DNA from: a virus
IMG/VR virus record: IMGVR_UViG_3300045256_000135
Span: 64,001-128,000 of that record
Direction: 5' to 3' (one strand)
DNA length: 64,000 nucleotides
The position numbers and the translations under genes were made by a program. The notes beneath the pieces were generated by a model. It was not told where the DNA came from and searched no databases. It worked only from the letters and a program-made list of their open reading frames with translations. Shown piece after piece: positions 5,347-27,973 of the stretch; the first letter of the stretch is position 1, and each line of letters begins with the position of its first letter.

Positions 5347-7866
5347 ATGCGGCATATTTTCCCCAACAAAGAGCTGAGTTTTGAGGACGCATATGTCCCG
5401 TCTAGAACCATTTGCGGTGCCCTAGCCACAATCGGTGGTGATGGACCCACTTGTTCAGCGTGCTTGAGAAAACAAGCAGCTGTGAACATCATAGACAGAC
5501 CAGAACCCGGGGTTGGGAGCGAGTCTGGTGCTGGAGACGCTTCCGTTCTGAAAGAAGATGCTTTCTCATCAGTGCCATTGATCAATCGTCCAGAGGAGAA
5601 CAGCAACCCAGCTGGCTCTGCAGAGAGAGACTTTGGCATGCGTAGACGGACAGAAGGTAGTGGTTTTGGGAACAACCTCACTGATCTAACTGTTGCAGAG
5701 GCTCTTCACTACACCGCATCACCAGAAGGTGAATTTGCTGTCAGTGATGACGAGTTCATAGCCAAGTTGAACGATGGTATCGGGCTGGAGTACTCACAGC
5801 ATCTTCGCTATCTAACGTATGCTTCAACCCTACGGCTCGCCTTTAGAGAAGCTCTTGCTGAGGAGTTTGTAGAGCATGCGGATAAGGAGTCCGAGCATGC
5901 TCAGATTCTCTCTCGAAGAGTGGTAGCTCTCGGTGGCAAGCTGGACTTTAAAGTAGCTGAGCCGGTAGTGTTTGACCCCACCGACCCGAATGTGCTCGAG
6001 AAGATTCTTGCTGAGCTTTGGCAGCGAGAGCAATCTGGGCTAACGTACTACCGAGAGCTTTTGCAGATGTGTGGCAAGTCGGTCTTTAGTCACACAGTCG
6101 AAGAGATTCTTGTCACTGAACTCGAACACAATGATGACATCAAGCGATTTGGGTACTCGCCGAATGAATCGAAAGTGGCGACTCGAAGACTGGCTGAAGT
6201 CGTAAATCAAGCACCCCTGTCACAGCCAGAACAGTGGAAGCAGAGCTACCACGATGAGAACGCGTTTGAAGGCTTGGACAAGATGGGTGATTGTGCGACA
6301 TGCGGAGAAAGTCTACATGGCACTGATATACACGACTGTCCGATGTGTTCAAGTCGCCAAGCTATACTTTCTAAGTACGCATGCTTCCAATGTGTAACGT
6401 CAGGTAGATTGGTTATCTGTGGTTCTTGTTCAACAGTCTATAACATCGAGCCGATCTACTGGAACAATCGTCGAGTAGCAGCTTGGATCAAGCGAGCAGA
6501 CGCTGTAAAGCGAAAGATGCTCTTCGGTGGTCTCCCCATCCACATCGAATACAACGCGGGTGATACTAAGACGTACGAAAATGGCAACTCACGGCAGTAC
6601 CGAAACGACTATGGCTTCATTCCCGGCACTGTTGGAGCTGATGGCGAGCCTATTGACGTGTACATGGGGCACTACCCGAGCCACCAAGCGCACGTGGTGA
6701 GCCAACTCAAGCCAGACGGAAGCTACGACGAGGACAAGGTGATGCTCGGATTTCAATCACCTGAGCATGCAGAGGCTGCATATCGTCAGCACTACCCCAA
6801 CAACGGGGAAGGCCATTTCGGTGGGATGAAGTCTCTTGGCATGGAGCAGTTCATCTCCGACTACTGCCAACCATCACGTGAGGACCCCTGGAAGCCAAAG
6901 CTGATCATCAAGCAGGTGCCTCTCGAGGTGATCACTGCTCAGAAAGTCAAGGTCAAGAATCCACAGACTGGGTGGGTTGGCTGGGTAAACCCAGAGAACG
7001 CTGATAAGTACGAGCCTGCAGTTGATTCAGATTCACCATCTGACACACCCAACGAGTTCTCGATCGACCCAAGTCCCAACGATGTAGACGAGGCTGTAAA
7101 GCAGGTTCAAGAGAGATCTAAGCTTGCTCCTGATCAGTTCAGAGTCAACCCATTGCCTCAGGATGTTGAAGCCGCAGTGAACGAAGCTCTGAATAGGCTA
7201 GACAGTTTCGTTAAGCAAAACCCAGATTTTGCACTTGCTCCAGATCAGGTGTCTGTAACGCATCTTGACCCTAGCCAAACCTCTGGTAATCCGACGGTTG
7301 ACAAGGTATCAGATGCAATTGTTGCTTCAGTCGAATCGCCTGAAGTAGCTAAAGAGGTGCTTCCAGCTGTTGTTCAGTCTATCTCAAAGAGTTCTCCAGT
7401 AGCTGGAGAAGCTGTCAGTGCTCTAGCAGAGACGTTGGCAAAGGCGCCAACACCAGAGGACGCACAGTCAGCGCTGAAAGAAGTGCTAGCGGACACACCA
7501 ATCGCTTCTCGTTACAGCAAGACTGAGACCTTACCACAGGCTAAGCCTAAGCAGAAATTGCCACAGGTTGCTCCACCAAAGGCGCCATCACAAAGTCAGC
7601 CGATGCAACCCCAGATCAAACCGAAGCCAGACTCTGTCGATATGTCGGAGGCCATCTCACCAGTAGAGCAAGAGTGGCAAAAGGAACGTGGTAAGCTCAA
7701 GGAGCTTTGGTCTCAGATGTGGCGTCTTATCGGCGGGCCTGGATATCAACCTGGCCCTTACCTGAAGGAATCAGCAAAAGAATACGAGATGCCAGACCAC
7801 GGTCCTTTAGGCAATGATGGCGAGATTGATCACCCAGTGGAAGACAAGGTGACCACATATGCTTGA
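5347..7866 (+). CDS. Multi-domain protein: ferritin/Dps-like four-helix bundle, Zn-finger cluster, InPase (inorganic pyrophosphatase-like) domain
   Basis: E..HADKESEH and EQSG..YY..ELEH ferroxidase-like motifs; several CxxC pairs; DYGFIPGT.GADGEPIDVY...DEDKVMLGF. ATG 5347 preferred over the track's TTG 5281. Confidence 0.75.
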   Translation: MRHIFPNKELSFEDAYVPSRTICGALATIGGDGPTCSACLRKQAAVNIIDRPEPGVGSESGAGDASVLKEDAFSSVPLINRPEENSNPAGSAERDFGMRRRTEGSGFGNNLTDLTVAEALHYTASPEGEFAVSDDEFIAKLNDGIGLEYSQHLRYLTYASTLRLAFREALAEEFVEHADKESEHAQILSRRVVALGGKLDFKVAEPVVFDPTDPNVLEKILAELWQREQSGLTYYRELLQMCGKSVFSHTVEEILVTELEHNDDIKRFGYSPNESKVATRRLAEVVNQAPLSQPEQWKQSYHDENAFEGLDKMGDCATCGESLHGTDIHDCPMCSSRQAILSKYACFQCVTSGRLVICGSCSTVYNIEPIYWNNRRVAAWIKRADAVKRKMLFGGLPIHIEYNAGDTKTYENGNSRQYRNDYGFIPGTVGADGEPIDVYMGHYPSHQAHVVSQLKPDGSYDEDKVMLGFQSPEHAEAAYRQHYPNNGEGHFGGMKSLGMEQFISDYCQPSREDPWKPKLIIKQVPLEVITAQKVKVKNPQTGWVGWVNPENADKYEPAVDSDSPSDTPNEFSIDPSPNDVDEAVKQVQERSKLAPDQFRVNPLPQDVEAAVNEALNRLDSFVKQNPDFALAPDQVSVTHLDPSQTSGNPTVDKVSDAIVASVESPEVAKEVLPAVVQSISKSSPVAGEAVSALAETLAKAPTPEDAQSALKEVLADTPIASRYSKTETLPQAKPKQKLPQVAPPKAPSQSQPMQPQIKPKPDSVDMSEAISPVEQEWQKERGKLKELWSQMWRLIGGPGYQPGPYLKESAKEYEMPDHGPLGNDGEIDHPVEDKVTTYA

Positions 7867-11322: not shown

Positions 11323-13719
11323 ATGACTACCAAAAGATGGAATTCTGACATCATTATCCCAGGTTCGAGCTATGGTGACGTTCGGCGTCAAGCTTCAGCT
11401 CCTCTTCCTAGTCAGGATCCAACGATCCACGGGATGACAGTCAATCAAGCTGCTGCTTTGAACAGCAGGTTTGACGAGATGATGCCTCGTCTAGCTTCTG
11501 CAAACCCGCACACCACTAAGCGAGATTTGTTCAGTGGCGATCTTCCGAAGGGAGCAACTTGGGCTCCACGCACTGCCAACTTCGGTGGGGGCGCGATGGG
11601 GGTTTCTGGCCTAAACAACAGTGGAGGGGGCGGTCGCAATATGATGACCGTCCAGAAGCCCTACCAGCCTGAGTTTGCTTCCTCTGATCGACAGAACTAT
11701 CCTGTTCACCGCATCCTAGCTAATCGTTACTGGCGTTTGTTTATCAAGCTTGACCCCGTCATTGGTACGGGTCTTGACATGTACAGCGAGATGCCTTGGA
11801 GCGATTGCAAGCTCACCGGAGAAGGTGTCGAGGGTGAGGTGCGATCTGTTTACGAGGCGATGTGGGAGAAGTGCTCTGTTCTGAGCGTTCTTCCAGCGAT
11901 CGTAAGAGAGTTTCTTGGCCTTGGTGAGTGCATCCCCCATTGCTTCTTTGACAACAGTGAAGGGATCTGGACCTACATTGCTCTTCACGATCCTGATACG
12001 CTTGAGGTCATTGACGCTCCATTCATCAGAATGGATCCAGTTGTCGAGTTTGTTCCGGACGACCGTCTTCGGTCGATTCTGACCAGCACTGACCCAGAGC
12101 TTGCTGTTATCAGATCGAAGATGCCTCCCGAGTTACTAGCTCGTTTGCAGAGCCGGCAAAACATCCGGATCAACACTGAGACGAATGCAACGTTTCTTGC
12201 GAGGAAGTTGCATCCGTATGAGACTCGAGGAACTTCGATCCTCTCAAGAATGTGGCGTGTCCTCATGTACGAGGATGCGATTTTCGAAGCATCACTTGCT
12301 ACCGCTCGGCGCCATGCTGGGCCTTTGAAGATCGCCAAGTTGGGAAATCCACAGACCAACTGGATTCCTGGACCTGAGCACGAACGTCGGTTCATGGAGC
12401 TTGTTGCTCAAGCAGAGATGGACCCGCATGCCTGGATTGTGTATCACTACGGCCTCTCGTTGGAGGCGTTTGGTACCACCGATCGTGTTCTGACCATCAA
12501 CAAGGAGTGGGAGATCATCGAGAGGATCAAGCTGGCAGCGCTTGGCATCTCTCGAAGCTTCCTCAGTGGTGAGCTTACTTATGCATCCGCTACTGCTGGT
12601 CTGCAAGTGTTTCTCCGTCGAGCACTCTCGATGCGAAACTATCTTGAGTCCGCCTGGCTGAAGCCAAAGTTCTTCAAGCCAGTTGCTGAGATCAATGGTT
12701 TCTACAAGCCAACTCCAGCAGAGGTAGCCCATCGAACCAAAGTCAAGCGAACAGCTCAGCAAGCTAGAGACGAAGGACGTCTCATCATTCCAAAGATTGA
12801 GTGGGCTAACAAGCTCAGTCCCTCGATTGAGAATGATCTGCTCAATGCCTACAACACTCTGGAGAAGCAATTGGGCGTTCGGATCTCGAAGACCAAGAAG
12901 ATGGCAGTAGCCAACCTCTCATTCGAAGAGGAGTTGAAGCGGTCGCTAGAAGAGGACAAGTTCGAGGACGATGTTCGCAAGCTGCACGGGGTTGATGATA
13001 AGAAGACTGACCCGGCTGAGATTCAGAAGATCATCGACAACACAGACGAGACAAAGGACGATGATTCTAAATCAGAGGGGAAGCCAGATGCTGGTCCTGA
13101 CAACACACACGGTGGCAAGCACCCGCCAAACCCAATGCTGAAGCAAGACCAGCAGTATCAGGAGTCCGAGAAGGTTAATCCTCCAGCTCTCGAAGGGCCA
13201 CAAGCTGATCCGGTTGACAACCCTGGACCTGTAGACAAAGGGTTGGGTAACGACTCAACTGACAAGTTCTGGGGTGCAAACCGAAAGTTCGGCGTCTGGG
13301 AGCAAGATGACATCGAGGGGCTGATCGATCTTCTTGAAAGTGGAGAGACTGAATCTGCCTTCTGGTCAAAGCTCACGCCGAAAGTTGTGAAAAAGCAGAT
13401 CAAGCACCCCGATGGGTCGTATGTCTTTACGAAAGTCCTCGAAGGTTACGCTCCGTACAAGGCACTTCAGAACGGAGACCAAGATTCAGCTTGGGAGCAG
13501 ATTGAAGCCTTTCTTGACGAGGAGGGTTTCCCGCCAAAAGACATAGCTGATCTGCAGAAGATACTGTACCATGAGGGCACGTTTGAGTCGCCACATGAGA
13601 AGTTTCTCGAAGCTTTACCTGAAGATCCGAGCCAGCTCTCTGATGAAGCATTCGGCAAGCTATTCGCCGAAAAGGTTGAAAACCACCCTTTAGCCCAGAG
13701 GGCGCGGAGAGCTCGGTAA
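11323..13719 (+). CDS. Portal protein with acidic C-terminal extension
   Basis: DPVIGTGLDMYSEMP, LHPYETRGTSIL, ALGISRSFLSGE...YA motifs typical of large-myovirus portals; position between terminase and MuF/protease. Confidence 0.8.
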   Translation: MTTKRWNSDIIIPGSSYGDVRRQASAPLPSQDPTIHGMTVNQAAALNSRFDEMMPRLASANPHTTKRDLFSGDLPKGATWAPRTANFGGGAMGVSGLNNSGGGGRNMMTVQKPYQPEFASSDRQNYPVHRILANRYWRLFIKLDPVIGTGLDMYSEMPWSDCKLTGEGVEGEVRSVYEAMWEKCSVLSVLPAIVREFLGLGECIPHCFFDNSEGIWTYIALHDPDTLEVIDAPFIRMDPVVEFVPDDRLRSILTSTDPELAVIRSKMPPELLARLQSRQNIRINTETNATFLARKLHPYETRGTSILSRMWRVLMYEDAIFEASLATARRHAGPLKIAKLGNPQTNWIPGPEHERRFMELVAQAEMDPHAWIVYHYGLSLEAFGTTDRVLTINKEWEIIERIKLAALGISRSFLSGELTYASATAGLQVFLRRALSMRNYLESAWLKPKFFKPVAEINGFYKPTPAEVAHRTKVKRTAQQARDEGRLIIPKIEWANKLSPSIENDLLNAYNTLEKQLGVRISKTKKMAVANLSFEEELKRSLEEDKFEDDVRKLHGVDDKKTDPAEIQKIIDNTDETKDDDSKSEGKPDAGPDNTHGGKHPPNPMLKQDQQYQESEKVNPPALEGPQADPVDNPGPVDKGLGNDSTDKFWGANRKFGVWEQDDIEGLIDLLESGETESAFWSKLTPKVVKKQIKHPDGSYVFTKVLEGYAPYKALQNGDQDSAWEQIEAFLDEEGFPPKDIADLQKILYHEGTFESPHEKFLEALPEDPSQLSDEAFGKLFAEKVENHPLAQRARRAR

Positions 13720-13814: not shown

Positions 13815-15707
13815 ATGTTCTCTCGAAGTGGTGATATCCGCACCGAGAAACAAGTTCAGCAGTTGATCCATGGTGTCAACTGCACTTGCCACAAAACTGC
13901 GATAAAGACACCTGACTTTCTAGCTCCGAAGAACTACGAGAGTCGGGAACACTGGCAGAAGCGATTGCACCTAAGCAAGATCCCGCTTGATGCAAAACGC
14001 TACATCAAACAGCTTGAAAATGACGTTATTGACGGTAACGCCAAGTCGTTTGAAGCCTTGTGGAGCAAGATTGAGAAGGTTCTCGAAATGCCTGGTGGGT
14101 TGAGCCAGTCCACGTTAGTTGGCCTGATTGATTCAGCTCTCGCAACCCAACTCAATCATGTGGATCGCGGTGCTATCGATAATGCACTGACCGGTCTGTA
14201 TAGCTCTGGCAAGGAGCATGCGTACAGCCTGACAGACTTTAAAGCGAAGAAGATCAAGCGTCTGAAGAAACTGTCCTCTAAGCAGGCCTTCTTGAAGGAG
14301 GCGGTAACAATTGACACGGTTGAGGACAAACTTATGCTCCAGCATCTGAAGGAGACTGCTCTTAAGAATGTCAAGAGCATAGCGAACAAAGAGCTTAGGG
14401 ACAAAATCCTCGAAGCTCTAACTGCTGCTGGGTCTGAGAACGAGAATCCGCTTGAGCTCGCGAATAAGATCATCCAGGAAGAGTCAGAGAAGCTCAAGGA
14501 AAAGGGCAAAGAGCAGTTCAAGAAGATGCTTGAAGAGCTTTATGGAAAGCAGCAGTATCAGATTCAGCGCATTATGCGTACAGAGTCGATGAATGGCTTC
14601 GTACTAGCACAACTTCAAGGTTACAAAGAGCAAGGCATCGTAGCTGTTCGTTGGAAAGCGTTACAGAACGATCCAAAGGTATGTAACCTCTGCAAAACAC
14701 TTGACGGGAACACGTTCGAGATTGAGTACCTACTGTCTGAGGGTGGACGTTATCCTTTGACGTTTATGAGTCACCCGAACTGCAGGTGTGGGTTTGAGCC
14801 TGTTATAGCATTCGTGTCTTTCGATGATTTCGAAAAAGAGTATGCAAAGACACACCCGGATCAGTTCATTCAAGGTGAGCCTATCTTCAACGAAGAACTG
14901 CTCGGTCTAGAAGACATTCTGAAAGACTTCAAGGCTGGTTCGACGAAGTTTGATCGTGTTCCAGTTGAGCATGCCGAAGAGTTGGAGTCGTTTGCCAAGA
15001 AGGTTGACAACTCACCACTGGCTGACTCAGCACCACCACAAGTGAAGTTTGTGCAGGATGTGTTTGAGACTGATGCGTATCAACAGCGAGGCCGAACTGA
15101 TGAATCGAAGAAAGGTCAGGTCGACTCTTGGTATGATCCGGAAACAAAGACGACCTGGGTCTCTTCATACGCTACGCAATTCTCTTCCCCAAGTGAGGTA
15201 ATGGCTCGTGACTGGGCATCAAGAGTCTGGAGAGATAATGGCACAGTCAGGAAGTGGTTTACGTCACACTTTGATGGTGAGACTGTCTCCGACAGAAAAG
15301 TGTCCCCAGCAGCACTGGAGATACTCCAGCAAACCTTCAAGCCATTTGCTCTAGCGAGCACCTACTACCTAGAGTCTGGAGACGCTCTGGGGTTGACAGC
15401 AAAGACTCGAGCCCTACCAGAGGATCAATTGCGAGAGATACTAAGTAAGCTTGGGCTCTCGAAAACTGATGTAAGCTCGGTTTTAAAGGGAAGAGATAGC
15501 CATACACTGTGGTCGATGACTAGTGGAGAGGTAGTAGACACAGAAGAAACGAACAAATTCGTTTCTGAGCACTCACGTAACTCAGCCCTTCAACTGTTCG
15601 TAGACTCGTTTGTGAGTTACGTAACGTCTCCTTACATACTAGAACACAAAGATCCCAAAGCGTTTGAGTTTCTCAGAGACTCTGTGTTCAAGGGCGAGGC
15701 ATTCTGA
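13815..15707 (+). CDS. MuF / SPP1 gp7-family head morphogenesis protein with C-terminal extension
   Basis: RIMRTE...W..LQNDPKVCNLC..LDG...HPNCRC signature; reading frame open upstream to 13680. Confidence 0.85.
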   Translation: MFSRSGDIRTEKQVQQLIHGVNCTCHKTAIKTPDFLAPKNYESREHWQKRLHLSKIPLDAKRYIKQLENDVIDGNAKSFEALWSKIEKVLEMPGGLSQSTLVGLIDSALATQLNHVDRGAIDNALTGLYSSGKEHAYSLTDFKAKKIKRLKKLSSKQAFLKEAVTIDTVEDKLMLQHLKETALKNVKSIANKELRDKILEALTAAGSENENPLELANKIIQEESEKLKEKGKEQFKKMLEELYGKQQYQIQRIMRTESMNGFVLAQLQGYKEQGIVAVRWKALQNDPKVCNLCKTLDGNTFEIEYLLSEGGRYPLTFMSHPNCRCGFEPVIAFVSFDDFEKEYAKTHPDQFIQGEPIFNEELLGLEDILKDFKAGSTKFDRVPVEHAEELESFAKKVDNSPLADSAPPQVKFVQDVFETDAYQQRGRTDESKKGQVDSWYDPETKTTWVSSYATQFSSPSEVMARDWASRVWRDNGTVRKWFTSHFDGETVSDRKVSPAALEILQQTFKPFALASTYYLESGDALGLTAKTRALPEDQLREILSKLGLSKTDVSSVLKGRDSHTLWSMTSGEVVDTEETNKFVSEHSRNSALQLFVDSFVSYVTSPYILEHKDPKAFEFLRDSVFKGEAF

Positions 15708-16652: not shown

Positions 16653-16756
16653 TCTGTTACATCGAGTAAGAGCAGTGCTCGCCGTATACTCGATGTGGTT
16701 TCCTGAATCGAGAAATAGATTCGTACTGACGAACTGTATCTTCTTTGAAGAAGTTC

Positions 16757-17674
16757 ATGTTCGTCAAGACTGCTAAAGCTGATGTACTCGCGCATTGGGA
16801 GGGACAGGGTGGCACTCTGTCCCGTACAGCAGGGTTAGAAAAGACAGCATCACACTTCGTTCAGAATGCTGGACGTATCGATGTGACATCAGCTCTAGCT
16901 GATGTAGCTGCATTCTACAACATCAGCTCAAATCCGCAGGACTACTTCTTCATTCCAGTACGTGCCAATTCAATCGACGTTCCAAACGAGAACGGCGATT
17001 GTTTCATGAATGGTGAGATGCTTCGATTTGATCCCAAGCTGGGTCGTCGAGTGTATCAAACCTACATGCTGAAGCCTCACCACGTCAACCACAGAGCTGA
17101 TAACCCACTTATGGCTCGTGGATTTATCGTTGACGTGCACTACAATAATCAGAATGCAATGCCTGATGAGTGGCGGAAGAAGTACGCCGATGCCACAGGT
17201 GTTGATCATCCACAGGACTTGTTCATCGAAGCTCTGCTTGCTGTTGATTCGACCAAAGACAAGCATTTAGCTGCCGGACTAAAGAGTGGACAGATCAAAG
17301 CATTCAGCATGGGCTGTGAATGCGCTATGACAGAGTGTTCAGTTTGTGGCAATCAAGCTACGAACAGGATGCAGTTCTGCGCTCACATTAGAACTGGCAA
17401 CAAAAACAAGCTGTTCTTTTCAGAGAAACTCGGTCGTAACATCAAAGCATTTGAACGTTGCTATGGTGTTTGTTTCTCTGAGTTGTCAGCCGTCGATACT
17501 CCGGCTGATCCAAGAGCTTTTGCCTCTGGTGAAGTTTTCCAACTGCATGCTAGCTCCCAGGTTGATCGGGAAGAGCTACTGCAGATTGTCGCATTCGCAA
17601 AGAAACACAAGGACTCCATGCCGAAGACTCTACAGGGTTTTTTGGCGGAGGTTCTGAATGACTATGCTGAATAA
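16757..17674 (+). CDS. Putative prohead (capsid maturation) protease
   Basis: PNENGD, HHVNH, AFSMGC and ELSAVDTPAD resemble HK97/assemblin-type serine protease motifs, with a Cys-rich insert; sits between MuF and scaffold. ATG 16757 preferred. Confidence 0.7.
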   Translation: MFVKTAKADVLAHWEGQGGTLSRTAGLEKTASHFVQNAGRIDVTSALADVAAFYNISSNPQDYFFIPVRANSIDVPNENGDCFMNGEMLRFDPKLGRRVYQTYMLKPHHVNHRADNPLMARGFIVDVHYNNQNAMPDEWRKKYADATGVDHPQDLFIEALLAVDSTKDKHLAAGLKSGQIKAFSMGCECAMTECSVCGNQATNRMQFCAHIRTGNKNKLFFSEKLGRNIKAFERCYGVCFSELSAVDTPADPRAFASGEVFQLHASSQVDREELLQIVAFAKKHKDSMPKTLQGFLAEVLNDYAE

Positions 17675-20390: not shown

Positions 20391-21605
20391 ATGCTTCGCG
20401 ATAATCCGTATCGTCGGATGTCAGGGCCCGCTCCGGCTCCTGCTCCAACTGCACCAAGCTTTGCTAAGAGCGCGTCAGCGAAGGCGCCTCTCAAGGCAAA
20501 CCCCAACAGCAAGCAAGCTTCTCAGCTTGCTGGCCAAGATGGCGAGTTCAACCCGGCCGGGTTCGGCGGGTGGCGCTCAGCGGTTCGCTCCGCAGTTCCA
20601 TCTGGTCACAAGATGTTCGACAAGAAGGGCTCGATCAATGCTGTCGACAAGCGCGACGCATTGACTCAGATTGCTCACCTTATGCAGAACATGGTTAAGT
20701 CGGCTGGTATGAGAGACTTCTCTCGTACTGCTGAGAACCGTGAAGCTAAGGCAGAGAAGCTGAAGGTCCTTGCGGCTGCGATGAACGATCCTTCGGGTGA
20801 GGGCTTCGCAATCGTTGGTCAGGAGCTTCTGCTCCCGATCAAGTCGATCATCGACTACGAAGGCTGGGCACGGAAGATCTTCCGTGTTCGTCCGCTAGCC
20901 CAAGGTGAGCTCTTCCGCCTCGCCAAGGACGTTCGCGCTTCAGCGTTCGTCATCGGCCAGGACGGCCAGGGTATCGAAAGCCGTCTCTTCGGTAAGTACA
21001 TCACCCCGTCTGAGTTCAAGATCACTTCGTTCCCCACGGTGGACATCGAAGAGATCTACCAAATGAACTACGACGTTCTCGACCGCGCTCAGGACACTGC
21101 GCGCCAAGAGATCGAGCTCAATGAGGACAAGCGCGCCCTCATGCTCATTGATCGCGCTTCACAGGCGGTCAACACCACGACGATCTTCGGTACGCTCGGT
21201 ATCGGCGCATTCGAAGATACTCGCTATCAGGTTGAGCGTCACCGGCTCATCGTTGAGAAGTTCCTGATTGCTCGTGCAGAGCTGTCGGACATCGTCAAGA
21301 CGATGAGCACGGTCGTTGACCCTGTTACTGAACGTGAACTGATCCTTGCGGGCTACATCGGCAACGTGTTGAACGCAAGCATCATCACCACGGCAGGCAC
21401 GGGTGTCGAAGAAGTTGTGCCAGCAGGCGTCATGTACGCTGTAACAGCTTCTGACTACCTCGGCGAGATGGGTATCCGTATTGAACTGTTCTCTGAGCCG
21501 TTCAATCAGTACTCTGAGCGTCGTCTCGTGAAGGGCTGGGCGTTCGGTGAGCTTCTCGGATTCGCAATCCCAGAAGCCCGCGCGTGCGCGAAGGCAAGCA
21601 AGTAA
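20391..21605 (+). CDS. Major capsid protein
   Basis: AGGAG RBS, strongly biased codon usage, PIKSIIDYEGWARK and DVLDRAQDTARQEIELNED HK97-fold-like segments, strong terminator downstream. Confidence 0.85.
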   Translation: MLRDNPYRRMSGPAPAPAPTAPSFAKSASAKAPLKANPNSKQASQLAGQDGEFNPAGFGGWRSAVRSAVPSGHKMFDKKGSINAVDKRDALTQIAHLMQNMVKSAGMRDFSRTAENREAKAEKLKVLAAAMNDPSGEGFAIVGQELLLPIKSIIDYEGWARKIFRVRPLAQGELFRLAKDVRASAFVIGQDGQGIESRLFGKYITPSEFKITSFPTVDIEEIYQMNYDVLDRAQDTARQEIELNEDKRALMLIDRASQAVNTTTIFGTLGIGAFEDTRYQVERHRLIVEKFLIARAELSDIVKTMSTVVDPVTERELILAGYIGNVLNASIITTAGTGVEEVVPAGVMYAVTASDYLGEMGIRIELFSEPFNQYSERRLVKGWAFGELLGFAIPEARACAKASK

Positions 21606-21624
21606 GCTCTACAGAGCTGAAGGT

Positions 21625-21664
21625 AAAGAGAGGGCTGGTTGGAAACAACTAGCCCTCTCTTTTT
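21625..21664 (+). terminator. Intrinsic terminator after MCP
   Basis: AAAGAGAGGGCTGGTTG-GAAA-CAACTAGCCCTCTCTTTTT. Confidence 0.9.
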
Positions 21665-21676
21665 GTGTCTGGTATA

Positions 21677-21750
21677 TTTGACGTAACCTTAGTTCTAGAT
21701 TGCACAGCTATCCTATTAGCTGTGCAAAATCGACATCTAATAGACAAGGT
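21677..21750. promoter_or_regulatory. Composite intergenic element copy 1 (TTTGAC...ACAGCTA-N6-TAGCTGT...AGACAAGGT)
   Basis: 11-bp perfect inverted repeat 21700-21727; same layout as 27686-27760. Confidence 0.6.
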
Positions 21751-21810
21751 GACTATTTTCAACGAACTTGTTCGAGGGCCTTGATTTCTCGTACCGAATC
21801 ATTATGATCA

Positions 21811-22110
21811 TTGTATGGAACTCTGGAAGTTGATCCTGCTGATGGTAGTCTTCTCGGCTATCGGATTCTCGAGCGGATGGAGCTTTTGCAAGCGCTACCA
21901 TGGGGGACGATGATGACGGAAGATGAAATCAAGGCGTTGATCATGGAGACTATGATGGAACGCTTGGAGATCGAACTGAGCCTGGATTACGACAGACTAA
22001 AACCGGCACTCAGAGTCAGAGTCGGAGTTCGATTCGACGGTCGCGTCATCTGGAGCAAGGAAGACGGCTCTTCGGTTGACCTTGCTCAACTCAAAGGGGC
22101 ACTGGAATGA
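21811..22110 (+). CDS. Hypothetical protein (accessory island; true start may be 21910)
   Basis: ATGA coupling to the next gene; G-rich RBS before 21910. Confidence 0.5.
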   Translation: MYGTLEVDPADGSLLGYRILERMELLQALPWGTMMTEDEIKALIMETMMERLEIELSLDYDRLKPALRVRVGVRFDGRVIWSKEDGSSVDLAQLKGALE

Positions 22111-22460
22111 CTCGAGACCAAGAACTGGCCACGCTAATCATTGATTGGGTCGAAGACCATCTGATGCGACAAGGTCGAGCTTCAGAGCTTCACCAACGCA
22201 ATGGAATCATCAATGCGTACCGAGGAGAGGGCGATACCAAGTGTGCCATTGGGTGCTTGATCTCTGATCAAGACTATGACCCGAAGATTGAGGGAAAGAC
22301 GGTAGAGCAGATTTTCTATCTCATGCCGTTCCATTGTTCAGAAGCTATCGAAAGTCTGCTGGTCCGCCTTCAGTCTCTCCACGATATTGATGATATCACA
22401 AGGTGGCCTATTGAGTTCAGTGAACTTCGAGACTGGGTTGAGTCAGGTTTTACGGATTGA
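22107..22460 (+). CDS. Phage hypothetical protein
   Basis: YRG..KCAIGCLI.D..Y...EG...LQ.LHD pattern resembling a recurrent small phage protein family. Confidence 0.65.
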   Translation: MTRDQELATLIIDWVEDHLMRQGRASELHQRNGIINAYRGEGDTKCAIGCLISDQDYDPKIEGKTVEQIFYLMPFHCSEAIESLLVRLQSLHDIDDITRWPIEFSELRDWVESGFTD

Positions 22461-22469
22461 GAGGGTACA

Positions 22470-22667
22470 ATGACAAAGGGTAATCACGAATTCTACACCA
22501 CTTGGCGGGAGCGGGTCTACCTCGAGGTAGGCTTCCTTACTCGGGCTGAAATCGACCGTCTTCACGAGTCAAAGGACATCAACCAAGACATGACCATGCA
22601 CCAGGTAGCTATCAAGGCTGGGGAGGTGTTGGGTCTTTCAGAAGTGGAGGAGTTCGATGGCGAGTAG
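22470..22667 (+). CDS. Hypothetical protein
   Basis: GAGGG RBS; overlaps the next gene. Confidence 0.55.
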   Translation: MTKGNHEFYTTWRERVYLEVGFLTRAEIDRLHESKDINQDMTMHQVAIKAGEVLGLSEVEEFDGE

Positions 22668-22887
22668 TATGACTGCGGACGAGATCATACACAGGCTCAG
22701 CTTGCTTGGTGTGAAAGCACAACTCTGTGGCTGTGGCTGTTCTTCTGTCGAAATTGATCCGAGGTCTCTTAACACGGCGATCTGCAAAGAGTGCTGTGTA
22801 GCATACACACCGGATGAGGTGCTTGACGACGGGTTTTGCGAATCTTCTTGCCGGGCTTCGTATCTGCACCGTTCCGCACGAGGCTGA
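22657..22887 (+). CDS. Cys-rich hypothetical protein
   Basis: GGAGGAG RBS; CGCGC, CKEC and CESSC motifs. Confidence 0.55.
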   Translation: MASSMTADEIIHRLSLLGVKAQLCGCGCSSVEIDPRSLNTAICKECCVAYTPDEVLDDGFCESSCRASYLHRSARG

Positions 22888-22888
22888 C

Positions 22889-23224
22889 GTGAACCTGTTC
22901 ACATTCCGAGAAGAACACGAAAGCGCACCAGAGATCAAAAGCTGTGGTCGTAGAGGGTGGCGGTGGGCACTAGCACTTGGCAGAGGTCAGCGCTACGTGT
23001 CAATTGGACTTCAGCGTCAGGTGATCTTTCACGATGTTGGGAAGGTCTGGCACCCAGCTGGAGAATACTTCGATCTGGTGTGTCGATGGGATCGATTCAC
23101 CATCGCCTCGGATCACATCTATTACGATGGTCCGCACTGTGCGTTCCAGTTCGGATTCTTGCAAGCGTGCTGGAGTTACTGGAACTGTGAGAAGTGCTAC
23201 CCCACTACTGAGGAGGGGACATGA
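22889..23224 (+). CDS. Hypothetical protein
   Basis: GTG start just after upstream stop; ATGA coupling downstream (track start 22814). Confidence 0.5.
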   Translation: MNLFTFREEHESAPEIKSCGRRGWRWALALGRGQRYVSIGLQRQVIFHDVGKVWHPAGEYFDLVCRWDRFTIASDHIYYDGPHCAFQFGFLQACWSYWNCEKCYPTTEEGT

Positions 23225-23451
23225 CTGAGTACAACGATGGTTGGCGGAGATGTGAGAACTGTGATGACAGCTACACGTGGGATGGTGATCCTGCGGAAGT
23301 TTGCTCAGCATCGTTGTGTGAGAATTGCACTAGACTGGTGCAGAGAGTGGCTCGGTATCTGTCGGAGGACGTTGGGTGTCGAGACTTGATCCAAGCCTAC
23401 GATGAGCGAATCGAGTCTCTGAAGAACGGCCGCTGGTGGAACGAGACTTAG
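23221..23451 (+). CDS. Small Cys-rich hypothetical protein
   Basis: GAGGAGG RBS; two CENC motifs. Confidence 0.6.
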   Translation: MTEYNDGWRRCENCDDSYTWDGDPAEVCSASLCENCTRLVQRVARYLSEDVGCRDLIQAYDERIESLKNGRWWNET

Positions 23452-23557
23452 GCTTTCGTTATCACGCACTCTATCATCATGTTTGACCTTACAGGGACTA
23501 AGCTCTGTAAGAGGTGGGATCAATCCTGACGACTGATCTTTCTGCGTCGAACAATGA

Positions 23558-24379
23558 ATGTACGAACAGGTTTCTGTTCTCGATAGCACTGGTAAACCAG
23601 TCTCCCCTTGTTCTCCAGCTAGAGCAAGGATCCTAGTCAACTCGTCAGAGGCTGATTGGGTAACGACTGATCCACCCGTTCTTCGTCTACGGCGAGCTGT
23701 TCGTACAACCCCAGAGGTATACACCATGATTTCGAATTTCACCGACTACTTTCGTGAAGAGAAGGACATCTGGATCCAGAACATCTCTAGCAACCAGGTG
23801 ACTTGTCAGTTTGAGATTAGCACGGGCAACTACCAGTCAGTGCTGATTCAAAAGTCGCGAGATCCGATCAATCTAACTCAGCAAATTCCGTTTCAGATCA
23901 TCAAGAATTCACCAGATTTCAGAAAGCTGGCGAATCGTCGACCGCCGGTGTTTCGGGTGATGACTGAAGATGAAGTCAAGGCATACTACCTCCAGAAGGC
24001 TGGAAATGCTGGTGATTGGCGTGAAGCGTATGAAGCAGCTGAAGAGAAACGGTTGAACGTTGCTAACCGCGTCATTCCAGAGAACACGACAGTACTCCCA
24101 GCTACTGAGGTCAAGCCTGAGGTGGTCGAGCGTGTTTCGGAAGAAGACGTTATTCATCCGAAAGTGGTGTACCTTATGATCCAGGTTGATGGACAAATTC
24201 CAGACGCCGAGAAGATGAAAGCACACGAACTGCTCACAGAGCTTCAGTTGATCGAAGACGAACTGAAGACGGATGACCTCGACTACATTCTTGCGAAGGG
24301 TTTCTGGAAGTCCGTGAAGACCTGGGCCAAGTCAGTGATGGCAAAGAAGTCTGCCAATACAGCTGAAGGCGACGGCTGA
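23558..24379 (+). CDS. Phage protein with N-terminal RRXRR/PLMP (IscB-type) domain; second in-frame start at 23726
   Basis: VSVLDSTGKPVSPCSPARARILV...LRL matches the IscB PLMP pattern; GAGGT RBS before ATG 23726. Confidence 0.65.
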   Translation: MYEQVSVLDSTGKPVSPCSPARARILVNSSEADWVTTDPPVLRLRRAVRTTPEVYTMISNFTDYFREEKDIWIQNISSNQVTCQFEISTGNYQSVLIQKSRDPINLTQQIPFQIIKNSPDFRKLANRRPPVFRVMTEDEVKAYYLQKAGNAGDWREAYEAAEEKRLNVANRVIPENTTVLPATEVKPEVVERVSEEDVIHPKVVYLMIQVDGQIPDAEKMKAHELLTELQLIEDELKTDDLDYILAKGFWKSVKTWAKSVMAKKSANTAEGDG

Positions 24380-24387
24380 TCTAGCCT

Positions 24388-24428
24388 AAAGAAACAGAGG
24401 GTTGCATACAGCTTCCCTCTGTTTCTTT
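24388..24428 (+). terminator. Intrinsic terminator (possibly bidirectional)
   Basis: AAAGAAACAGAGGG ... CCCTCTGTTTCTTT inverted repeat. Confidence 0.8.
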
Positions 24429-24475
24429 GTTTACGTTTTCGAAACGTTGCACAATAATCTTGGCTGAGGAGTCAC

Positions 24476-24943
24476 ATGTACCCGATTATCAAACGCTACC
24501 AAGTACTGTTAGAAGCCACCGGCGTTAATCCCGGGTCAAGTGCTGACGTTCCCTTCAACTGTGACGATGTCTCTACTCAACTTTTGGTTAGAGTCTACTC
24601 ACTTGATCCAGCCCAAGCGTTGGGCACGGGAACTGCTCAAGTGTACAGAAACGGTACTGCTCTTGGCTCAGCTACCGCGTTTGCTGGCACCATGATCACA
24701 GTTGCGGCAGATCCCTTTGCCTTCGCCGGCGCTAACTCGGAGCTGGTAGGACTGTTTCCGCCAACCGTGAACAGTGCTAAGTCTGACGGGTACATTCGCC
24801 TGTCTGGTGGTGCAATGGTGATGGATCAAAGCTCTCAGATCCCGCCTACGCCACCTCTACCAATGTTTGTTCGAGTTACGAATGGCAACGCATCAAAACT
24901 AGCGATTGCTGTGGTGTGGACTGGGCTCATCTGGAGGCCATAA
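24476..24943 (+). CDS. Hypothetical, probably structural protein
   Basis: GAGGAG RBS; beta-rich composition. Confidence 0.65.
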   Translation: MYPIIKRYQVLLEATGVNPGSSADVPFNCDDVSTQLLVRVYSLDPAQALGTGTAQVYRNGTALGSATAFAGTMITVAADPFAFAGANSELVGLFPPTVNSAKSDGYIRLSGGAMVMDQSSQIPPTPPLPMFVRVTNGNASKLAIAVVWTGLIWRP

Positions 24944-27049: not shown

Positions 27050-27690
27050 TCACGTACCACCCAAGTGGCCGAAACACACTGTTTAGAATGCTTTTGGTCT
27101 CCGGTAGTGGGACGGGGCTAACTGGCCAAACGCCAACAATCTCGATTCAACGTAGATCTGATAGCAAATGGTGGGATGGTTCTGCTTGGCAAAACGCGAA
27201 GCAGGCTATCACCATGACTCAGACGGATGCAGTGAATCTTCCAGGCGACTACAGCTATGCGTTTAACCAAGCTTCAGCTGGTGGTGGCACCGAAGAGTAT
27301 CTTGTTCGTTACGAACAAAACGGAGTTGCTCCTAACATCGGAATAGATGAAGAGCAACACGTGTTTATACCTTTTGCTTCGACTCTGGTGCCTGAGAAGA
27401 AGCTTGGTATTGTCATGTCTGATGACGGAATTAACGTCAAGATCAGCGTCTGGATGGAGGAAGGTGGTCTGAGAGCGAACAACTACAATTCCATGGCCGC
27501 TCAAGTGAAGGACCCTTCAGGGAACCTGATCGTTGATCTAGGTACTGCAACCACCCAGAGCGTGGATGGTGTGTTCTCGTTTTTGACGACTGACTCTGCG
27601 ATTGTTCGGAACACGCCCTATCTGGTAACGGTACAAGCTACTCGAGGTGCGTCCGTCGATCTCGTACAGCAAGGTTTCGTTAGAGTTTGA
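27046..27690 (+). CDS. Putative structural protein
   Basis: ATGA coupling; beta-rich with WWDGSAW motif. Confidence 0.55.
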   Translation: MITYHPSGRNTLFRMLLVSGSGTGLTGQTPTISIQRRSDSKWWDGSAWQNAKQAITMTQTDAVNLPGDYSYAFNQASAGGGTEEYLVRYEQNGVAPNIGIDEEQHVFIPFASTLVPEKKLGIVMSDDGINVKISVWMEEGGLRANNYNSMAAQVKDPSGNLIVDLGTATTQSVDGVFSFLTTDSAIVRNTPYLVTVQATRGASVDLVQQGFVRV

Positions 27691-27760
27691 CTTTACCTAA
27701 GGTTGGTTTCAGACAGCTAACTAGTTAGCTGTAGGTTCTAGAACCTAACTACAGACAGGT
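27686..27760. promoter_or_regulatory. Composite intergenic element copy 2 with two abutting perfect palindromes
   Basis: ACAGCTAACTAGTTAGCTGT (27713-27732), TAGGTTCTAGAACCTA (27732-27747), AGACAGGT (27753-27760). Confidence 0.65.
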
Positions 27761-27769
27761 ATACACACG

Positions 27770-27973
27770 GTGTTAGTGGCTCCCACAAGTTCCTGGACAG
27801 TGTTACGCACCATCGGAGGCGATTTCAGTGTTGTTGGCGATCTGAACGCTAGATACTGTGATGTTCAGTTGTCAACTCCTGCTGATCGCTGTGTACCAGT
27901 TCTGTCGGATGCTGATTGTGAGTGCCCTGATGGACCTTGTGACACCCAACCACCCCTTAGGACCATCACATGA
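27770..27973 (+). CDS. Small Cys-rich hypothetical protein
   Basis: ATGA coupling to the next gene. Confidence 0.4.
   Translation: MLVAPTSSWTVLRTIGGDFSVVGDLNARYCDVQLSTPADRCVPVLSDADCECPDGPCDTQPPLRTIT

Follow-up and report, generated by a model that had tools for sequence, protein, structure and literature searches.

Why does a phage keep the N-terminal domain of the IscB and IsrB nucleases on a protein that carries no nuclease? The question is raised by a gene on the plus strand of a 64,000-nucleotide stretch of virus DNA (the window), bases 64001-128000 of the 183,244-bp virus record IMGVR_UViG_3300045256_000135, which CheckV rates as complete. The gene, here called PLMP-X, belongs to a capsid gene cluster and consists of one open reading frame (ORF) of 273 codons plus stop (23558-24379, stop codon 24377-24379), in which a PLMP domain is followed by an unrelated phage protein, X. 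As judged from sequences and predicted structures, the PLMP domain is genuine, the fusion is conserved in a large phage family and X is probably a capsid-associated or capsid-assembly protein. It is possible that the PLMP domain binds the hairpins of the structured leader that precedes its own start codon.

A PLMP domain without a nuclease

The long ORF opens at ATG 23558, the first codon after an in-frame TGA (23555-23557), and its residues 5-52 (23570-23713, plus strand) match the Pfam family PF14239 (RRXRR) with an E-value of 2e-6 and 28.2 bits, above the cut-off of 25, over positions 1-48 only of the 174 profile positions; the first 56 residues alone score 32 bits. The preliminary description of this DNA, which proposed the RRXRR profile as a check, had taken the first ~45 residues for an IscB/IsrB-type N-terminus followed by neither RuvC nor HNH, and both parts of that claim are borne out: a Pfam scan of the 273-residue ORF calls no other family at E <= 0.01, neither RuvC nor HNH included. 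An AlphaFold2 model built from an alignment of 56 family sequences has a mean predicted local distance difference test score (pLDDT) of 89.1, with 90-96 over residues 1-40, a weaker linker block at residues 51-60 (pLDDT 71) and a predicted template modelling score (pTM) of 0.54. It shows four strands (residues 5-8, 14-18, 32-36 and 41-44) and a helix (20-28), and with VIA-align its residues 3-50 superpose on the PLMP domain of IscB (9k2z_A) with a Z-score of 9.7 and a root-mean-square deviation (rmsd) of 0.8 Å over 48 residues. Other solved PLMP domains follow closely (9k30_A, Z 9.4; IsrB 8dmb_P, Z 8.6; rmsd 0.8-1.4 Å over 48 residues), and Foldseek lists IscB chains first, IsrB 8dmb_P next and the N-domains of IF3 after them. 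A profile of the family compared with PDB sequences reaches TbaIscB at 5.6e-11, and its only matches are to IscB, by way of the PLMP domain, with none for X; by fold, too, no nuclease is matched after residue 57. At the P-L-M-P motif of strand 2 the window has P-V-S-P, with both prolines retained, most relatives having F-L-E-Y or V-L-S-Y, and the block after the motif, H-P-A-x-A-R-x-L-L-K-x-G-K-A, is retained. Together, the Pfam match, the superposition on solved PLMP domains and the match to TbaIscB identify the first ~50 residues, on sequence and modelled structure, as a true PLMP domain without a nuclease.

The fusion is not peculiar to this virus. Two locus searches yielded 78 loci with 55 distinct open frames, 56 with the window, and PF14239 is matched at E <= 0.01 in 46 of the 56, the window included. 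A PLMP profile made from the family itself, a circular test where its own members are concerned, locates exactly one site at each locus; this site precedes X in every case and shares X's frame in 51 of the 56. With a word-indexed protein search, relatives of 301-325 residues that carry PF14239 are found at 95-99% query coverage, along with short calls of the same genes, and an exhaustive search finds at least 156 representatives of 50%-identity clusters at E <= 1e-30. The PLMP domain is present, as called, in at least 96 of the 149 newly listed representatives, a lower bound because gene callers often choose the internal start, as they do in this genome (P0001). Identity to the nearest relative (P0160) is 61% across 274 columns; its PLMP domain and linker align free of gaps, and its PLMP domain shares 35 of 48 residues with that of the window. 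Family members bearing the domain are 30-60% identical.

The PLMP codons are also constrained. By the Nei-Gojobori method, applied to unsaturated pairs (very distant pairs are saturated and were not used), the ratio of non-synonymous to synonymous substitution rates (dN/dS) is 0.056 for L011-L013, 0.11 for L007-L009, 0.12 for L074-L076, 0.13-0.18 for L014-L017, L014-L026 and L017-L033, 0.16 for L021-L058 and 0.25 for L005-L054 (L numbers denote loci), values similar to those of body X. Compared with its closest relatives with available DNA (L002, L043 and L044), the window has a nucleotide identity of 0.52-0.68 at the first two codon positions, as against 0.27-0.36 at the third. The conserved in-frame fusion, the low dN/dS and this codon-position pattern argue that the extension is translated and under purifying selection in the family. 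The check on relatives that the preliminary description had called for, namely whether they carry the same extension in frame and under selection, is thus answered in its favour.

Exceptions to the fusion are informative in their own way. At L070, the PLMP domain is a separate upstream frame of 72 codons (5738-5953), followed by AAGGAG and the body ATG (5995 onward), which is a natural split of the fusion. At L047 (1-280), the PLMP codons are disrupted, either through an internal deletion or through a frameshift, with the leader intact (83.8 bits to the group 1 leader model described below) and body X likewise intact, its internal Shine-Dalgarno (SD) sequence and ATG retained. L038 has X with neither PLMP domain nor leader and, in their place, a terminator hairpin together with a strong SD; at L020, a different gene stands upstream of X; and L067 has a leader-like AGGT with two hairpins and no PLMP domain within the 2.6 kb examined. 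Conversely, a tandem pair of PLMP domains precedes X at L035/L039 and L036 (5821-6135) and at L078 (3878-4192), as it does in 2 of the 149 cluster representatives (P0021 and P0031).

The frame probably yields two products. The preliminary description had X as an unrelated phage protein of ~217 residues, in frame and with its own ribosome-binding site and ATG, and this holds: the SD sequence AGAGG (23713-23717, plus strand) lies within the linker codons, 8 nt before ATG 23726, from which the short form runs for 217 codons plus stop (23726-24379), exactly the form that the gene callers of public collections choose (P0001). Across the family, the internal start is an ATG in 54 of 55 rows, 2-14 codons ahead of an invariant N-F-T-(D/E)-Y-F motif; L067 has GTG, and L078, the 56th row, which was not scored, has no candidate. 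The linker codons before it spell an SD (AGGAG or GGGAGG, and AGAGG in the window), and duplex energies, calculated with an anti-SD motif, are at or below -6 kcal/mol in 44 of the 55 rows, with a median of -7.8 and -7.2 kcal/mol in the window, against a mean of -3.0 at other in-frame positions. At the long start, the same threshold is reached in 18 of 47 rows (median -5.5). With 4 exceptions, the PLMP-bearing frames have a long-start codon 2-13 codons upstream of the first strand, most often 4-8; ATG is the usual codon, and GTG or TTG takes its place in the remainder. Since the internal ATG and its strong ribosome-binding site are conserved, the short form X is probably the main product and PLMP-X the minor one.

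The leader before the long start

The PLMP-X frame is separated from the small ORFs upstream by a spacer of 106 nt, and much of this spacer is structured. A first hairpin, P1 (23488-23511, plus strand), pairs CTTACAGGG (23488-23496) with CTCTGTAAG (23503-23511) in a 9-bp stem closed by the loop ACTAAG, and is returned by direct reading, by a hairpin search and by both minimum free energy (MFE) and centroid folds. An SD-like AGGU (23512-23515), inside AAGAGGUGG (23509-23517), forms the junction to P2 (23515-23528), a 5-bp hairpin found by the hairpin search (UGGGA, loop UCAA, UCCUG). P3 (23530-23549), seen by direct reading and by the hairpin search, is weak, with a 4-bp CGAC...GUCG stem and a 12-nt loop; it is followed by AACAAUGA and the AUG at 23558. 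Around 23528-23549, either GACG/CGTC or CGAC/GTCG pairing is possible. The leader folds more than expected by chance: its 83 nt reach -22.4 kcal/mol (z -2.14), with 5 of 200 shuffles folding as well, and a 91-nt stretch has a z of -2.84. The stems that the preliminary description had drawn, P1 and the GACG/CGTC pairing, are real. In the MFE fold, GGGAUCA (23516-23522) pairs with UGAUCUU (23535-23541) and displaces P2 and P3; this competing pairing, which is not seen in L002, may represent an alternative conformation.

The same order of hairpins is found in L002, L043 and L044, with P1 and P3 stems that differ in sequence. The hairpin at the place of P1 has 11 bp in L002, 9 bp in L043 and 5 bp in L044, and P3 is longer in relatives and of different sequence (7 bp in L043, 5 bp in L044 and mostly 5-6 bp in the larger leader group 1, with 3 bp in L052). 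The 16-mer AGGTGGGATCAATCCT (23512-23527) is identical in L002. The 15-mer AGGTGGGATCAATCC occurs once perfectly in the window, and its three occurrences at up to 3 mismatches are no more than chance would give (as many in 13 of 100 shuffles); an exact scan of viral contigs for it returned 30 loci, 29 of them chance matches and one a known relative. An AGGT or a near variant between two hairpins is shared by the window's clade and two larger groups of leaders. The window's clade has a single strong SD-like run, 36-49 nt before the start; two hairpins intervene, the start follows 4-16 nt after them, and no SD stands at the long start. Groups 1 and 2 have a normal SD near the long start besides the AGGU.

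Covariation is seen in these larger groups. Group 1 (14 leaders of ~146 nt, the whole spacer) has a multi-helix consensus with tetraloop hairpins and 29 pairs, 20 of them compensatory, and its start codon sits within a small covarying hairpin; group 2 (11 leaders) has 12 pairs, 5 of them compensatory. The stem homologous to P2 covaries in relatives (GGG/CCC, GGU/ACC, GAGC/GCUC). MAFFT alignments of the four leaders of the window's clade fall out of structural register. In eight group 1 loci (L004, L007, L008, L046, L048, L050, L052 and L075), a stop-free frame extends from the ATG back across the structured leader for 23-40 codons.

To which gene does the leader belong? In most relatives, PLMP-X follows the gene of the major capsid protein (MCP) by 100-250 nt, and in the window by 1.9 kb. 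At L009, L013 and L075, other genes lie between MCP and PLMP-X, as in the window, and at L003 no MCP is matched within the 6-kb flank; in all four, the group 1 model matches directly before PLMP-X. The leader is therefore to be assigned to the PLMP-X gene rather than to the 3' end of the MCP mRNA. No Rfam family is matched at E <= 10 on 21500-24500 or on the leader of one relative.

Body X, the capsid protein and the neighbourhood

X itself offers few clues by homology. In the AlphaFold2 model, it comprises a mid alpha/beta domain (23726-24085, plus strand, pLDDT 90.4), a disordered acidic stretch and a helical C-terminal domain (24140-24376). No Pfam family is matched, and PHROGs give a weak match to phrog_17686 (2.6e-4), whose function is unknown. 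Against solved folds, the mid domain reaches a Z of 4.4 at best, with no Foldseek match at E <= 1e-3, and the C-terminal helices give generic fold matches only (Z <= 7); with these values, the folds of decoration and scaffolding proteins provide no clear match either. A protein atlas lists only unnamed viral clusters for X. Similar predicted folds over the body are found in the BFVD among uncharacterised jumbo-phage proteins of ~200-250 residues (PaBG S5VV81 at 1.1e-8, Motura, BcepSaruman), and no resemblance was found in profile comparisons of X with PaBG gp081 and gp078, Yoloswag gp136 and phage G gp28. PaBG gp81, which is virion-associated according to PMC7412058, was ruled out as the positional counterpart of X: it lies upstream of the capsid gene.

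A link to the capsid is suggested by modelling. A predicted complex of MCP residues 40-404 (36-row alignment) with the short form X (50-row alignment) scores 0.61, the best of three controls scoring 0.00; the score mark is reached by 58 of 80 solved complexes against 2 of 110 mismatched pairs, a calibration that is only rough here since custom alignments were used. Across runs, contact agreement is at least 48% and the pLDDT of the partner at least 72. The tightest predicted contacts join MCP residues ~262-276 (223-237 in chain numbering) to residues 23-26 of X (79-82 of the long form), which belong to a mid-domain beta-strand, in a manner that resembles edge-strand pairing. That the score reflects memorised structures seems unlikely, X having no solved relative. 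The model thus supports binding of X to MCP, and because it does, X is probably a capsid-associated or capsid-assembly protein.

The surroundings are those of a head module. The long ORFs of the window are all plus-strand, among them a portal gene (11323-13719; phrog_16240, 2.6e-78), a MuF-like minor head protein (13815-15707), a prohead protease (16745-17674; E 3.4e-33) and the MCP (20391-21605; phrog_2522, 2.3e-52). The order protease - g17658 - g19583 - MCP - PLMP-X is kept at nearly all loci whose upstream part is long enough. Directly behind the MCP gene stands a very strong intrinsic terminator with a 17-bp stem and a T run (21625-21662), and five small ORFs (99, 117, 65, 76 and 76 residues; 21811-23451) occupy the interval between this terminator and the PLMP-X leader. 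Two of them (22657-22887 and 23221-23451) are Cys-rich and zinc-ribbon-like, and another (22107-22460) matches phrog_17693 (7.6e-14), of unknown function. The PLMP-X unit is closed by a terminator-like hairpin (24388-24428, plus strand) with a 14-bp stem, a 13-nt loop and a T-rich tail; it was found by direct reading, its loop exceeding the limit of 8 nt used in the terminator scan, which leaves it out. Further downstream, a 280-nt gap without a called gene (27690-27970) precedes a conserved 397-residue gene at 27970. The gap has two hairpins at ~27715-27755, is conserved, at a mean column identity of 69%, in both L002 and L043 and does not resemble the PLMP-X leader; it may be a second RNA element or be coding in a different frame.

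As for the virus itself, the window's DNA is found in hot-spring and microbial-mat metagenome runs (8 matches listed, all of them DNA runs), and a contig alignment to it shows no variants. Among phage records, a nucleotide search gives no match and a protein-level search gives Virus Rctr197k as the sole match.

A possible feedback on its own message, and the rivals

Known systems provide several precedents. Like IscB and IsrB (PDB 9K2Z, 9K30, 8DMB, 7UTN, 9NVU), PLMP-X has a homologous PLMP domain, predicted to be a small antiparallel beta-sheet with one helix, at its N-terminus. In IsrB, the PLMP domain contacts the tandem 3' hairpins SL7/SL8 and a Shine-Dalgarno sequence just upstream of isrB, as described in PMC9581776, and hairpins with an SD-like run likewise stand immediately upstream of the PLMP-X start codon. 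For the terminal hairpins of IscB, PMC9640706 describes a recognition by PLMP that is mainly sequence-independent, and both papers have the domain packing extensively on the protein domains RuvC and TI as well. Unlike IscB and IsrB, PLMP-X has no RuvC, bridge helix, HNH or TI domain and no TnpA, lacks a conserved P-L-M-P motif in its family, shows no guide RNA detectable by an Rfam search that included HEARO, and is joined to a phage protein for which binding to the capsid protein is predicted. The whole 183-kb genome holds no HEARO (RF02033) at E <= 1, a search that a diverged relic of the terminal hairpins could escape, no match to the TnpA Y1 transposase (PF01797), for which 6 of 14 control genomes are positive, and no second RRXRR match. 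The comparison of the leader with omegaRNA/HEARO that the preliminary description had suggested thus came out negative. Because RuvC/HNH, omegaRNA and TnpA were looked for and not found, PLMP-X is best classed, by sequence and model, as a member of the PLMP domain family and not as an IscB/IsrB effector.

A PLMP domain outside a RuvC context is not without parallel: IshB, reported by Altae-Tran et al. in 2021, is said to be a small PLMP + HNH protein, and residues 3-48 weakly match the phage 'HNH endonuclease' phrog_16726 (E 0.017, a 56-residue piece). In contrast to these, PLMP-X lacks HNH, and its partner domain shows no sign of being an enzyme. The small alpha/beta fold also recalls IF3-N, with 1tif (E 0.096, rmsd 3.7, 50 columns) and 6o6d standing right after the IscB chains in the Foldseek list, a likeness that Hirano et al. 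pointed out in PMC9581776. The match to IF3-N is, however, much weaker than that to the IscB PLMP domain; an IF3 C-domain is missing, and IF3_N is not among the Pfam calls. With respect to gene layout, PLMP-X is reminiscent of lambda C/Nu3, nested in-frame head genes with a long and a short product: one frame in a head gene cluster has a family-conserved internal start with its own ribosome-binding site. It differs in that the extra N-terminal part is a domain of RNA-binding type rather than a protease, and in that the two products are predicted here. Finally, in ribosomal-protein operons and with T4 gp32 and RegA, an excess of the assembly protein binds its own mRNA leader and so regulates its own translation. 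PLMP-X shares with these a structured, covarying leader over the initiation region and a product with a domain of the type that binds RNA hairpins, and it differs from them in that the binding domain is found only on a putative minority isoform and that binding is predicted.

The scenario that we favour is one of feedback. The PLMP-X gene, conserved in the capsid cluster of an extensive clade of large phages, most of them uncultured, would most likely give two nested products from one frame: mainly the 217-residue X from ATG 23726, made with its own ribosome-binding site and predicted to bind the capsid protein, and to a lesser extent the 273-residue form from ATG 23558, which is X with the nuclease-free PLMP domain. 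On protein not yet bound to the capsid, the PLMP domain would bind the hairpins (P1 - AGGU - P2 - P3) of its own mRNA; initiation would thereby be limited, the long form would stay rare and X would perhaps stay matched to MCP. The net effect would be an assembly-coupled translational feedback in the style of ribosomal-protein operons. We infer that both forms are made, that the PLMP domain binds RNA here and that its own leader is the target. That the PLMP domain of unassembled protein binds its own leader hairpins and limits synthesis has, in our estimate, a probability of roughly 40%.

Several observations weigh against this feedback. The P-L-M-P motif, which touches RuvC and RNA in IscB, is not conserved in the phage family, and the helix region of the window's PLMP domain is poorer in basic residues than the family consensus. 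ATG 23558 has no Shine-Dalgarno within 20 nt (SD duplex +0.1 kcal/mol). Covariance models of leader groups 1 and 2 (R1 and R2) find their own groups only, plus one weak match each (L019, E 0.22, and L034, E 0.048); since both miss the window leader, its kinship to these groups is an architectural resemblance, a layout drawn by eye from 4 clade sequences, and not demonstrated homology. The test for a hairpin-AGGT-hairpin arrangement is loose, being passed by 15 of 28 AGGT-bearing leaders and by 313 of 1977 control AGGT sites, and its stricter version, passed by 7 of 262 plus-strand sites of the window and by 6 minus-strand sites, is not specific. The MFE z-scores of the leaders differ from those of coding controls to a modest degree (mean -1.33 vs -0.57, p 0.01). 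Because L067 has a leader-like element without a PLMP domain, leader and domain are not strictly linked in cis. Moreover, a domain that regulates only its own extension needs a further benefit, and it is solely the inferred link to assembly that supplies one.

Some of these points suit a different explanation, in which leader and PLMP domain are independent of each other. The hairpins would then serve mRNA stability or processing, or would form a split ribosome-binding site of the kind known from T4 genes 38 and 25, where a distant SD is brought near the start, and the PLMP domain would be a protein adaptor, or a binder of some other nucleic acid, that modulates minority X subunits on the capsid. 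The lone element of L067 fits this account, as does the sole strong SD-like run of the window's clade with its two intervening hairpins; an adaptor is also in keeping with the packing of PLMP on RuvC and TI in IscB and IsrB and with the predicted binding of X to the capsid protein, and tandem PLMP units (L035/L039, L036, L078 and 2 of 149 representatives) suit an adaptor as well as an RNA binder. On the other hand, no fixed docking of the PLMP domain on X is predicted (pTM 0.54, linker pLDDT 71), the AGG junction is partly occluded, no more than 3-4 nt separating the two helices, and groups 1 and 2 have their normal SD near the long start besides the AGGU. We hold such independence to be doubtful. 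It is less likely still that PLMP-X is part of a structural ribonucleoprotein, with the leader or a longer piece of the MCP-X transcript persisting as a stable small RNA that the few PLMP-bearing subunits retain on procapsids or capsids, similar to a prohead RNA, or with the PLMP domain anchoring nucleic acid to the shell. The wholly conserved ~146-nt spacer of group 1, with its 20 covarying pairs, is more than a simple operator needs, and both the predicted capsid binding of X and a hairpin recognition mostly without sequence specificity (as described for IscB) would be at home in such a particle, but the leader reaches up to the start codon and takes it in, as an operator does, is only ~70 nt long in the window and matches no Rfam family.

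The remaining alternative is that the extension is a decaying relic of an IS200/IS605 IscB/IsrB, or of a PLMP-HNH homing nuclease, which lies in frame by accident and is untranslated or without function. The missing Shine-Dalgarno at the window's long start, the annotation of the short form by public gene callers and the broken PLMP domain beside an intact X at L047 are what one would expect of a relic. Decay is difficult to reconcile, however, with an in-frame fusion in 46 (Pfam) or 51 (family profile) of 56 frames at 30-60% identity, with PLMP dN/dS values of 0.06-0.25, with the regular placing of the long start before the first strand, and with a genome that holds no RuvC/HNH remnant, TnpA, HEARO or second RRXRR match. 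The preliminary description had left room for an IS200/IS605 remnant; with the domain kept in at least 96 of 149 clusters, this reading is refuted as far as comparative data allow, and we consider it highly improbable.

A bolder form of the feedback proposal can also be envisaged. Perhaps a PLMP domain and a hairpin pair beside an SD constitute an autonomous, portable RNA-protein module that exists outside the OMEGA nucleases and here tags a minority capsid-binding isoform, the unassembled protein shutting off its own mRNA. This is unlikely in our view. If it were true, translation would be coupled to capsid assembly, since in most relatives the mRNA is also the transcript of the capsid gene, and the contact between PLMP and the omegaRNA hairpins in IscB and IsrB would be a second use of a self-regulating module, either use possibly having come first.

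Going by its listings, the literature that we found on PLMP/RRXRR treats the domain only within IscB, IsrB and compact Cas9d, with none on a fusion in a phage head cluster. That a large phage family (at least 156 clusters at 50% identity) keeps PLMP on a non-nuclease protein behind covarying hairpins means that the domain has an independent life. To this picture the window contributes a leader that stays with the PLMP-X gene though MCP is 1.9 kb away, a clade without an SD at the long start, the series of fusion, fission and loss seen with L070, L047, L038 and L067, and model support for binding between X and MCP. PLMP-X would be a small and tractable system in which to ask what PLMP recognises in RNA, a question that bears on the origin of the partnership between IscB and omegaRNA and on the engineering of compact editors. 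For the phages themselves, PLMP-X and its leader point to an undescribed control or assembly module, and suggest a new way to set the dose or the isoform ratio of a capsid-associated protein.

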